Below are positions 1 to 3,000 of a stretch of 64,000 nt of DNA, in pieces. This DNA is from a virus (lineage: Duplodnaviria > Heunggongvirae > Uroviricota > Caudoviricetes). The position numbers were made by a program. The first letter of the stretch is position 1, and the number at the start of each line of letters is the position of its first letter. Location: the IMG/VR virus record IMGVR_UViG_2721755660_000001. One strand, given 5' to 3'.

Positions 1-3000
1 AGGGTCTACGCATGTGACCTCTGGGCTTGAAATAATGTTTTCAATATTGTGATTGCAGTAAATATGCCATTCATTATCTATTGTAACGCCATTGAACTTT
101 GCCAGCTTCACAAGATCATTTGATGGCTTTAAATCCCATGTATGGCTATTCCCAATACTCAGCAATTTAAATGGTTTCACGGTTAAATTAATAGTGAGGG
201 TATTTTTACTTTTATCTGTTAAGACAATGGTGGACTTTCCTGGGTTTTTGGCTGTTATCTTCCCATTATTAATGGAGGCCACATTAGTGTCAGAAATTGT
301 GTAATCCGCAACTCTGAATTCAACACTGCGCTCATTGCCAGAGCTAATAACGATGTTTTTGTTAATGTGCGTGGGGTTGTCGCACGCAGTTATGAATAGC
401 GCGGAAAATGAAGCCATTACCAATGTCCTGAAATTATACATTTTTGAACTTGCCAACTTTAAACTCACCTTTAAATAATCTAACAACATGGTTAACCACC
501 ATTTTGTCAATAACGATTGCCGCAAATAAAGATATTGCAAATATTATGATTACATAGAGCATGGTTTTGATTGCCAGGTAATCAACCACGGCAGGAATGC
601 CAAGGTAGTAAGAAACCTTTTCTCGCACAGCGATGTGTATTAAGTAGACTCCGTATGTAAAAGGAGCAAGGAAAAGAATAATCTTCGAAGCAGGCTTGTC
701 ATTATCGAAATGAGTGCCGGTGACTATTAAAGTCAACATACTAGAGAAGAAGAACATGCTGACGCTAAAATCATAGGGCTTGGTATCAAACCCAAGGCTG
801 TTGACGCTTAGCCATGTGAATGTGACTTGCATTGCAAGCGAGGCCGCAAACAACTTCCACGTGGTTGATCTCTTGATTTTAACGCGCTGAAGAAGCCCTC
901 CCGCGATGAAGTAGCCTAGCCAAAGATAAATCTGAGGTATTGGGATAATGTTATGATACCCCGTTATTACTTTCCCCAGTTGATGCTCATACTGAGGCCA
1001 ACAACAAATGACAGCTATAAATATTAAGCTATGGGCAGTTTTATCCAATGGAATTGCATCAGTTATTACTTTAATGGCAGGGTAAACAATGTAAATGCCA
1101 AGCAGAGAATAAACAAACCATAAGTGAACAGATATGCCTGTTGGTGATTTGTATAGCAACTCGAAAAATCCACCTATTCCTTTATTGTAGAACGCATCAT
1201 TATGCTGGAAATAATAGTTTATGAAAGCGTAAATGAAGAATGGAACAAGCAATGTTGCAAGTCTTTTTCTATAACCAGACCAAAGATTTTCCGTTTTACG
1301 GTTAAGCAGGAAATATCCGCTCATTATAAAGAATATAGGAAGTCCGGCTCTGACGATCGCTTGAGTAAACATCGATTGATAGACAATTAGATCAGACTGT
1401 CCGGTTTTAACCATCGTCGCATAGTCCGGGGTAACATGAATTGCTATCACTAACAGGCAGCAAATTATCCGTAAAAAATCTGCAGATACATTTCTCATGG
1501 GGATTCCATAAAATTTTTTCCTACATGATAGAGCAACCAACCCCGGTTGTGAATGGCATGAGAAATTCCATAAGCATCAGTCATAAGCATTGAGGCAGTG
1601 ATCACTACTTGATCAGCAATGCCGCAATGAACTACTGTATGCATATACAGTAATCACGGAGTGCATATCATGGGCTTTCCATCACCGGCGGCAGACTTCA
1701 CAGAAAGGCGCATATCGCTCGATGCGATGCTCGTAAGCCATCCATCAGCTACGTACTACATGCGCGCAGCAGACACTCACTATCGCGCTGGTATCATGTC
1801 TGGTGCGCTTCTTCTCATCGACTCGGTATTGAAGCCATGCGATGGTTCGCTTCTTGTTTGTGCTACTGAGGGGGAATTCAGGATAAAGCGGTACCGGACT
1901 CATCCGCGACCACACCTGGAGAATCTTGCTGATGGGAGATGGGAGGAGTTGCCGATAGACAGGGAGAACACGTCGGATGCGCTGGCGGTGTTTGGGGTGA
2001 TCAAGTACATCATCAATGATGCGCGATCGGGGGAGTTTGACGACTGCCCGGTGATGTAGCTGGAACTACTCCACCTTTTCATCAAGCCAGTCTGCCCACC
2101 ACTGCATCATCTCACGACGGGTATCGAGATAGGCGGCATGGTTGTATACCGATCTGGTGCCGCCGCTAACGTGTGCCAGCTGCATTTCGATAGCATCACT
2201 GTTCCAGTGCTTCTCATTGAGCACGGTACTGAACTGATGTCGGAATCCGTGGCCGCTGGTCTGCCCTTCATAGCCAATGTTGCGGATCAGCCCAAGTACT
2301 GAGTTCTCGCTGATTGGCTTCTTTCTGTCATTTCGGCCGGGGAAACAAAGGTCGTACTGACCGGTGACATGCTTCAGAAACTTAAATAGCTCCTCAACCT
2401 GCCCGGACATCGGCACGACGTGCATCTTGCGGCCCTTCATCACTGATGGATCAACGCTGATTAGCCTGTTTTCAAAGTCGATTCCTGACCATGCCAGCGA
2501 GCGGAGTTCGACTGTGCGCATGGCTGTATAGTGCAGCACCTGCGCCGCTATCTTAATAACAATCCAGCCGCCATAGGCATTCATTGCCCGCTGGAACTCG
2601 TGTATGCGGTGCAGGGGAAGGAAAGGGTAGTTCTCTTTCCGGTAGCCACGCATAGCGCCAGCAAGGTCTCTTGATGGGTTGTACTTAGCCCTGCCAGTTA
2701 CGATCGCATAACTGAATACTTCACCACACCTACGCCTCGCCTTATCAGCGCGTTCCATTGCGCCCCTGTCTTCGAAAAGCCTGATCACCTTCAGCAGAAC
2801 CATTGGTTCGACATCTTCCATCTTCAGGTGCCCAATAACTGGCAATATGTCATCCGTGAACATGCTCATCATCTCGTCAGCATATCCCTTAGACCACACC
2901 TTTGATTTGTGCGCATGCCATTCACGGAAGATATCCCCAAAAGAATCGGCGCTCTCTTCTTTCTCTTTCTTCTTTATTGCCTTCTTCTGTTCAGCCGGGT

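Follow-up and report, generated by a model that had tools for sequence, protein, structure and literature searches.

A prophage-borne HumD family gene beside argW, predicted to supply a UmuD homologue directly in its UmuD' form

In a 64,000-nucleotide (nt) stretch of a virus of the Caudoviricetes (IMG/VR virus record IMGVR_UViG_2721755660_000001), referred to here at its full length as the window, we analysed humD, a small gene that lies next to the integrase of a prophage. Its sequence assigns it to the HumD family, in a copy carried by a prophage; HumD is a UmuD homologue which is made directly in the UmuD' form. Its family membership, the N-terminus of its product, the sequence of the operator in front of it, the absence of an adjacent umuC and the state of the former catalytic dyad can all be read from the window itself. 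We consider it likely, with a probability of about 0.8, that the gene is repressed by LexA and derepressed by DNA damage, and that its product forms a UmuD'2-like dimer which partners host UmuC and RecA in translesion synthesis without UmuD cleavage. The HumD concept has been in print since 1999 (McLenigan et al. 1999, J Bacteriol 181:7005, the primary HumD paper) and the gene was already annotated, so that the locus is a rediscovery of a known family. The gene and its control region consist of the following features, with positions given in the coordinates of the window.

1609..1638, plus strand: inferred promoter of humD, with a -35-like TTGATC at 1609-1614, an 18-nt spacer and a -10-like TACTGT at 1633-1638 (read from the sequence)
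1633..1652, no strand assigned: LexA operator (SOS box) TACTGTATGCATATACAGTA, a perfect palindromic match to the consensus that ends 17 nt before the ATG
1658..1661, plus strand: Shine-Dalgarno sequence GGAG (read from the sequence; a GGTG/GATG purine-rich block is aligned with it in homologues)
1670..2059, plus strand: humD-family gene of 129 amino acids (aa) plus stop (NF051876 match, identity to P1 HumD, RefSeq coding sequence (CDS))

The open reading frame (ORF) containing humD spans 1661-2059 on the plus strand, and the preferred start is the ATG at 1670, which the GGAG precedes by 8 nt. Translation from this ATG to the stop codon at 2057-2059 yields a product of 129 aa, MGFPSPAADFTERRISLDAMLVSHPSATYYMRAADTHYRAGIMSGALLLIDSVLKPCDGSLLVCATEGEFRIKRYRTHPRPHLENLADGRWEELPIDRENTSDALAVFGVIKYIINDARSGEFDDCPVM, which begins MGFPSPAAD. 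An earlier reading of the window, made from the sequence alone, had proposed the same frame, start and N-terminus, and RefSeq agrees, as the CDS of the identical protein WP_032141916.1 has the same start and coordinates. Upstream in the humD frame there is a TGA at 1628-1630, and a 24-residue UmuD-like arm with its Cys-Gly site can therefore not be encoded. In the family alignment, which comprises the window protein and the best 120 of 454 database matches at E<=1e-5 (n = 121), the Gly is preceded solely by the initiator Met in 117 of the 121 members. A longer product with an intact cleavage site, considered as an alternative, is excluded by this TGA, by the LexA box that fills the upstream space and by the Met-Gly start of the homologues. 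The sequence-only reading had itself named an upstream start with cleavage site and catalytic dyad as a finding that would overturn it; what we found was the in-frame stop and a protein that scores below the cutoff for UmuD.

The assignment to the HumD family rests on a clear separation of model scores. The NCBIfam equivalog NF051876, 'HumD family translesion DNA polymerase', matches the window protein with 203.7 bits against a cutoff of 120 (E=8e-61) and covers residues 1-129 of 129. The same protein falls below the cutoff of the UmuD model NF007621 (81.9 vs 110 bits) and of the LexA model TIGR00498 (17.7 vs 110.95 bits), the latter match being confined to the region of the C-terminal domain, and no helix-turn-helix domain was found in the window protein when it was checked as a LexA or phage CI-type repressor. 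Pfam PF00717 (Peptidase_S24) is matched with 33.9 bits against a gathering threshold of 23.3 (E=2.9e-8), a match that denotes membership of the fold family only, the catalytic competence of the window protein being doubtful. PHROGs places it in phrog_811, 'UmuD-like protein', and RefSeq names the identical protein WP_032141916.1 either 'HumD family translesion DNA polymerase' or 'S24 family peptidase'. By tblastn the HumD of phages P1 and P7 is 67.4% identical to the window protein over 100% of its length, and the homologues of phiKO2, HK639 (HK639_28), N15 (gp26) and D6 are 64-67% identical. Purifying selection is strong across more than 100 homologues, in which alignment columns are 78% identical on average and the N- and C-terminal segments do not vary. 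Existing descriptions of the family point the same way: the P1 RefSeq record gives for humD 'DNA repair; functionally complements E. coli UmuD'', HumD has been presented as a shorter, already activated UmuD (PMC7092418) and humD is listed as an SOS gene under LexA regulation (PMC9603915).

The best solved structures for the window protein are those of Escherichia coli UmuD' (1umu, E=4.7e-22; 1i4v; 1ay9) and of UmuD within the error-prone DNA polymerase V (pol V; 8gmt), and whole-length identity to UmuD' is 37%. In the alignments to 1umu_A and 8gmt_B, the Gly at position 2 of the window protein falls on the first residue of the crystallised UmuD' and on Gly25 of full-length UmuD, respectively. 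RecA-stimulated cleavage of UmuD breaks the Cys24-Gly25 bond and so exposes Gly25. The suggestion in the sequence-only reading that the product begins at the very residue at which UmuD is converted to UmuD' is thus borne out by both alignments.

The former catalytic dyad has lost its serine and kept its lysine. In a register on which HMMER and MAFFT agree, K55-A-S-G-D-S60-M-I-D-G-G-I-S67 of UmuD corresponds to R32-A-A-(gap)-D-T36-H-Y-R-A-G-I-M43 of the window protein, which places Thr36 at the position of Ser60, next to a one-residue deletion (A-DTH vs SGDSM), and retains Lys97 as K73. It had been proposed from the sequence that the catalytic serine may be absent, on the ground that AGIM stood in the place of GDSM; the serine is indeed missing, but AGIM (residues 40-43) belongs opposite G64-G65-I66-S67 of UmuD and the assumed register does not hold. 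Among the 121 sequences the Ser60 column contains Thr in 73, Ser in 46 and Ala in 2, and the Lys97 column Lys in 119, Met in 1 and Arg in 1; P1 HumD carries Ser at the first of these positions and N15 and HK639 carry Thr, HK639 having Met at the second. Column entropies were calculated on a family alignment of 113 sequences, which also served for the comparison of Lys112. Constraint is relaxed in the former SGDSM loop (residues 34-40), where the mean is 1.35 bits per column, and the column equivalent to Asp59 is the most variable of the segment at 3.0 bits. Tight segments are MGFPSPAAD (0.19 bits), FGVITYII (0.08 bits) and the C-terminal 14 residues (0.32 bits), and those next to the loop lie at 0.19-0.57 bits. 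Residue 112 of the window protein (2003-2005), which lies within the near-invariant FGVITYII block, is Lys, and is Thr in 112 of the 113 aligned relatives. Both dyad residues are lost in Aeromonas phage pAEv1818 (Ala and Arg) and in Hafnia phage Pocitis76 (Cys and Arg), and the HumD-type genes of these phages nevertheless have the usual start and tail, a LexA box and no umuC. We read the drift of the loop as a likely loss of constraint on self-cleavage chemistry, the former protease site having presumably drifted because HumD never has to cut itself, and the persistence of Lys73 in the enterobacterial clade probably has to do with structure or with interactions.

Beyond the C-terminus of UmuD the family carries a tail of the pattern ND(A)RSGEFDDCPV, present in the window protein as NDARSGEFDDCPVM (residues 116-129; 2015-2056), near-invariant at 0.32 bits per column (n = 113) and missing from UmuD as well as from the phage UmuD proteins compared. 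Across a wider set of HumD-type proteins the pattern is ND(A/M)RS(G/C)E(F/W)DD-x-P-x-(M/I/L). Its extreme end, E-F-D-D-C-P-V-M, is acidic and then hydrophobic, which we take to resemble the C-terminal tip of SSB, DFDDDIPF. Conceivably, though we think it unlikely, the tail is a dedicated interaction module that would recruit HumD or HumD2-UmuC to SSB-binding partners or to gapped DNA, or would help it to out-compete host UmuD' for UmuC; what the comparison shows is that the tail is conserved and that it goes hand in hand with a missing arm and a missing umuC. If true, it would amount to a phage-specific takeover of host translesion synthesis.

A perfect LexA operator at 1633-1652 had been overlooked in the sequence-only reading. 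Scanning the 64 kb window for TACTGTAT-N4-ATACAGTA with up to 3 mismatches returned this site as the sole match; the window contains no further extended-consensus LexA box, and its two bare CTGT-N8-ACAG matches (37013 and 61276) are at chance level. An alignment of the sequences in front of humD in the window, P1, N15, HK639 and BTP1 shows TACTGTAT...ACAGT as the sole conserved block besides the ribosome binding site (RBS) and the start. In the P1 record the lxr-humD regulatory region contains an annotated LexA binding site that is co-linear with the box in the window, and an SOS box also precedes, at -34 to -41, the Aeromonas, Hafnia, Morganella and EC21Z-063 homologues. In all, the box stands at a conserved position before seven more humD homologues, which belong to phages and in one case to a prophage, and both phage umuD genes checked carry one too. 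The -10-like TACTGT falls within the left half of the LexA box, and operator and -10 of humD thus probably overlap. A -35-like TTGATC/TAGATC is found at matching spacing in BTP1 and HK639, and a consensus promoter scanner made no call for the promoter at 1609-1638. With a consensus LexA box 17 nt upstream of the start, expression of humD is therefore predicted to be damage-inducible and not constitutive. Post-translational activation would then be the sole step bypassed, with synthesis itself predicted to be damage-induced. Of the earlier description of the subunit as constitutively 'activated', the pre-activated form stands, as no cleavage is needed, and constitutive expression is not expected, given the induction that the LexA box predicts.

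These features suggest a simple course of events. In the lysogen, host LexA on the 1633-1652 operator would keep humD off, and upon DNA damage RecA* would inactivate LexA and allow humD to be transcribed. As its chain begins at the counterpart of UmuD Gly25, the 129-aa product would not have to undergo self-cleavage mediated by RecA*. HumD would then dimerise in the manner of UmuD'2 and assemble with host UmuC (and RecA/ATP) into a translesion polymerase of the pol V type, and the slow cleavage step that delays mutagenic bypass would be skipped. For the window copy we infer LexA repression, dimerisation, binding of UmuC and RecA and stimulation of translesion synthesis from its 67% identity to P1 HumD.

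In the window no umuC adjoins humD, the neighbours of which are an acyltransferase and the integrase, and in the best-matching genomes no Y-family polymerase is annotated within 8 kb on each side of the locus with the identical humD or in the prophage region corresponding to about 3475-28700 of the window. That umuC is not adjacent had been noted from the sequence and agrees with these neighbours and annotations. The accompanying idea, a UmuD'-like subunit that acts on host translesion synthesis, coincides with the definition of the HumD family, and by analogy with that family the effect probably applies here.

Several points weigh against this reading. P1 HumD reportedly complements well only if it is over-expressed and is poorly expressed natively, and for that reason the physiological benefit even of P1 HumD is uncertain. 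The window protein and P1 HumD differ at one third of their residues, with Thr and Ser respectively at the Ser60 position. A simple 'truncated UmuD' model leaves the near-invariant Lys73 and the invariant C-terminal tail unexplained. An AlphaFold2 model, computed from the 113-sequence alignment, which is shallow at 64-90% identity, reached a mean predicted local distance difference test (pLDDT) score of 45.6 and a predicted template modelling (pTM) score of 0.34 and is too poor for structural support. Finally, humD of P1 is dispensable for lytic growth as judged by CRISPR interference (CRISPRi; PMC10695390).

That P1 humD is non-essential, together with the apparent disruption of the BTP1 homologue, would be in keeping with a decaying gene that has no function. 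We think this very improbable for the window copy, which has an intact full-length frame that is identical in 5 independent genomes, an intact RBS and operator, and a protein sequence under strong purifying selection across more than 100 homologues. Just as hard to credit is a HumD that is still a protease and employs a Thr36/Lys73 dyad to cleave UmuD, LexA or a phage repressor in trans. UmuD' can cleave UmuD intermolecularly, and among the 121 close relatives a hydroxyl residue is found in the Ser60 column in 119 and the Lys likewise in 119. The motif is nevertheless degenerate, with its one-residue deletion, its loop at 1.35 bits and its Asp59-equivalent column at 3.0 bits; the distant HumD-type proteins with Ala or Cys plus Arg keep all other family features, HK639 has Met for the Lys, and we know of no S24 peptidase with a Thr nucleophile.

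A role as modulator or brake is a somewhat more serious contender, though in our view still quite unlikely. HumD would on this account form heterodimers with UmuD or UmuD', or titrate UmuC or RecA filaments, and so dampen or retime SOS mutagenesis, the UmuD2C checkpoint or RecA-dependent recombination, which could serve the prophage at induction. UmuD/UmuD' heterodimers form preferentially and target UmuD' for degradation by ClpXP. The UmuD-like dimer and core regions are conserved in the window protein (37% identity to UmuD', with invariant FGV and GxL motifs), the near-invariant tail that UmuD lacks suggests an additional partner, and the gene, which many temperate phages carry without a umuC, must act via host proteins. 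Nothing in the sequence specifically predicts inhibition, however, and the available functional statements on the family, those of the P1 record and of PMC7092418, are of positive complementation of UmuD'. A damage-induced UmuD'-like partner of host UmuC is the account that we prefer.

The surroundings of humD contain three further features.

434..1498, minus strand: membrane acyltransferase, divergent from humD (Pfam PF01757 Acyl_transf_3, E=1.1e-39; RefSeq 'acyltransferase')
2066..3235 (or 3286), minus strand: argW-specific tyrosine integrase, convergent with humD (Pfam Arm-DNA-bind_3, Phage_int_M and Phage_integrase; RefSeq CDS)
3400..3474, minus strand: tRNA-Arg(CCT), argW, the prophage attachment site (ARAGORN; Rfam tRNA, 63.4 bits; RefSeq, beside yfdC in genomes with the same prophage)

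The integrase shows partial nucleotide similarity to intS (75-76%), and the earlier label 'IntS-like' suits it to that extent, the enzyme being argW-specific. The stop codons of humD (2057-2059) and of the integrase (2066-2068) are 6 nt apart and no terminator is predicted between the two genes; SOS-induced transcription of humD would therefore run antisense into int. In the argW prophage of E. coli EC21Z-063 the humD and int CDSs abut, with a gap of 0. An Rfam scan of 1-8000 returned the tRNA only. On the other side of humD, the acyltransferase, which has a promoter-like site of its own at 1553-1525, is a probable surface-polysaccharide-modifying lysogenic-conversion gene. Positions 1-417 of the minus strand encode the N-terminal part of a hypothetical protein, and next to it in matching genomes lie a second acyltransferase and a tail spike. 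Taken together, the minus-strand genes of 1-1498 look like a surface-polysaccharide-modifying lysogenic-conversion cassette.

The same order of tail-fibre or O-antigen-modification genes, humD and a convergent int beside the attachment site recurs in the window, in EC21Z-063 (at argW), HK639, BTP1, pAEv1818 and Pocitis76, and in N15 the humD homologue lies between a tail-fibre gene and parB. HumD is in this respect typical accessory ('moron') cargo of temperate phages. Of 5,426 complete E. coli genomes, 5 carry the identical protein at argW and 447 (~8%) contain HumD-like DNA, at 315 chromosomal and 173 plasmid places, the E. coli carriers being prophages and P1-like phage-plasmids.

In the window argW lies between two different prophages, the HumD prophage on its 3' side and a lambdoid, Stx-phage-like prophage on its 5' side. 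The second prophage has an integrase at 3595/3670-4839 on the plus strand and extends from 3475 to about 47000 or beyond; annotation of the best-matching genome lists for it RecT/exonuclease/Gam, a PstI-like restriction-modification system, CI/Cro, Q and a tRNA cluster. Continuation into the second prophage is seen in none of the 5 genomes with the HumD prophage, and genomes with the second prophage (e.g. O111:H8 strain 7-32 9A) have csc genes in the place of the HumD prophage. The tRNA cluster of the window, Met/Arg/Arg, lies at 28331-28580. In Stx phages stx normally follows such a cluster; no stx-like ORF was found after that of the window, where the expected place is taken by a 143-aa TerB-domain protein (28754-29185; Pfam TerB, E=1.8e-16).

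As a correct rediscovery of a concept from 1999 the result has limited practical value. The gene marks the argW prophage as the carrier of an SOS-inducible accessory factor that probably frees host UmuC from the delay of RecA-dependent UmuD cleavage, and it could raise damage tolerance and the supply of mutations in lysogens. Because HumD-like genes occur in ~8% of complete E. coli genomes, a role in stress-induced mutagenesis, for example under quinolones, is a reasonable question at the population level, albeit not a new one. The comparison across the family yields a relaxed protease loop set against a conserved Lys73 and tail, and a recurrent position convergent with int; the tail, the retained Lys and the possible antisense read-through into int are matters of the HumD family, not of the window locus.

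Among named systems, the umuDC operons of Salmonella phage vB_SosS_Oslo and Morganella phage IME1369_01 resemble the window gene in that they too are temperate-phage cargo with a LexA box in front, at a comparable late-region or moron position. They differ in that their UmuD proteins keep the arm, the Cys/Ala-Gly cleavage site, G[DS]SM and the Lys, are without the tail, and are followed immediately by umuC. In the sequences examined these traits co-vary, the HumD type having no arm, no cleavage site, a degenerate dyad, the tail and no umuC, and the UmuD type the reverse. The 'UmuD-like' proteins of N15 (gp26), phiKO2, HK639 (HK639_28), pAEv1818 (gp11) and Pocitis76 (ORF26) have the HumD architecture and are 42-66% identical to the window protein; HK639, pAEv1818 and Pocitis76 also share its synteny, with tail-fibre or O-antigen-modification genes followed by humD convergent with int. 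The homologue of Salmonella phage BTP1 (2001-2373 of the BTP1 stretch) is recovered by tblastn in two pieces with 92% coverage and is unannotated, the annotation having a hypothetical ORF on the opposite strand. A frameshift has probably turned this homologue into a pseudogene, and its LexA box is intact. The argW prophage of EC21Z-063 has an extra ORF of 79 aa (MPRRYDIEAAFRS..., 2775-3014 of that stretch) between LexA box and humD. The RefSeq label of this ORF, 'DNA polymerase V', was set aside, as it has no Pfam or NCBIfam match, and the ORF is absent from the window.

With E. coli UmuD' (1UMU, 1AY9, 1I4V; as pol V subunit 8GMT) the window protein shares the PF00717 fold and the blocks GFPSPAAD, HPSATY, DGEF-x-x-K and FGV, whereas HumD is made directly without cleavage, has about 10 extra conserved C-terminal residues and is not co-transcribed with umuC. 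P1 HumD has the same length of 129 aa, the same MGFPSPAAD start at the N-terminus of UmuD', the same lack of umuC and the retained Lys97, as well as an identical deletion of one residue in the former GDSM loop and the same tail, NDARSGEFDDCPV; in both a LexA box lies about 20 nt ahead of the ATG (19 nt in P1, 17 nt in the window). The two differ in the Ser of P1 against Thr36 of the window, Thr being the majority residue of the family (73 of 121), and in setting: humD of the P1 plasmid prophage lies between lxr and phd-doc, and that of the window, in a prophage integrated at argW, between acyltransferase and integrase.

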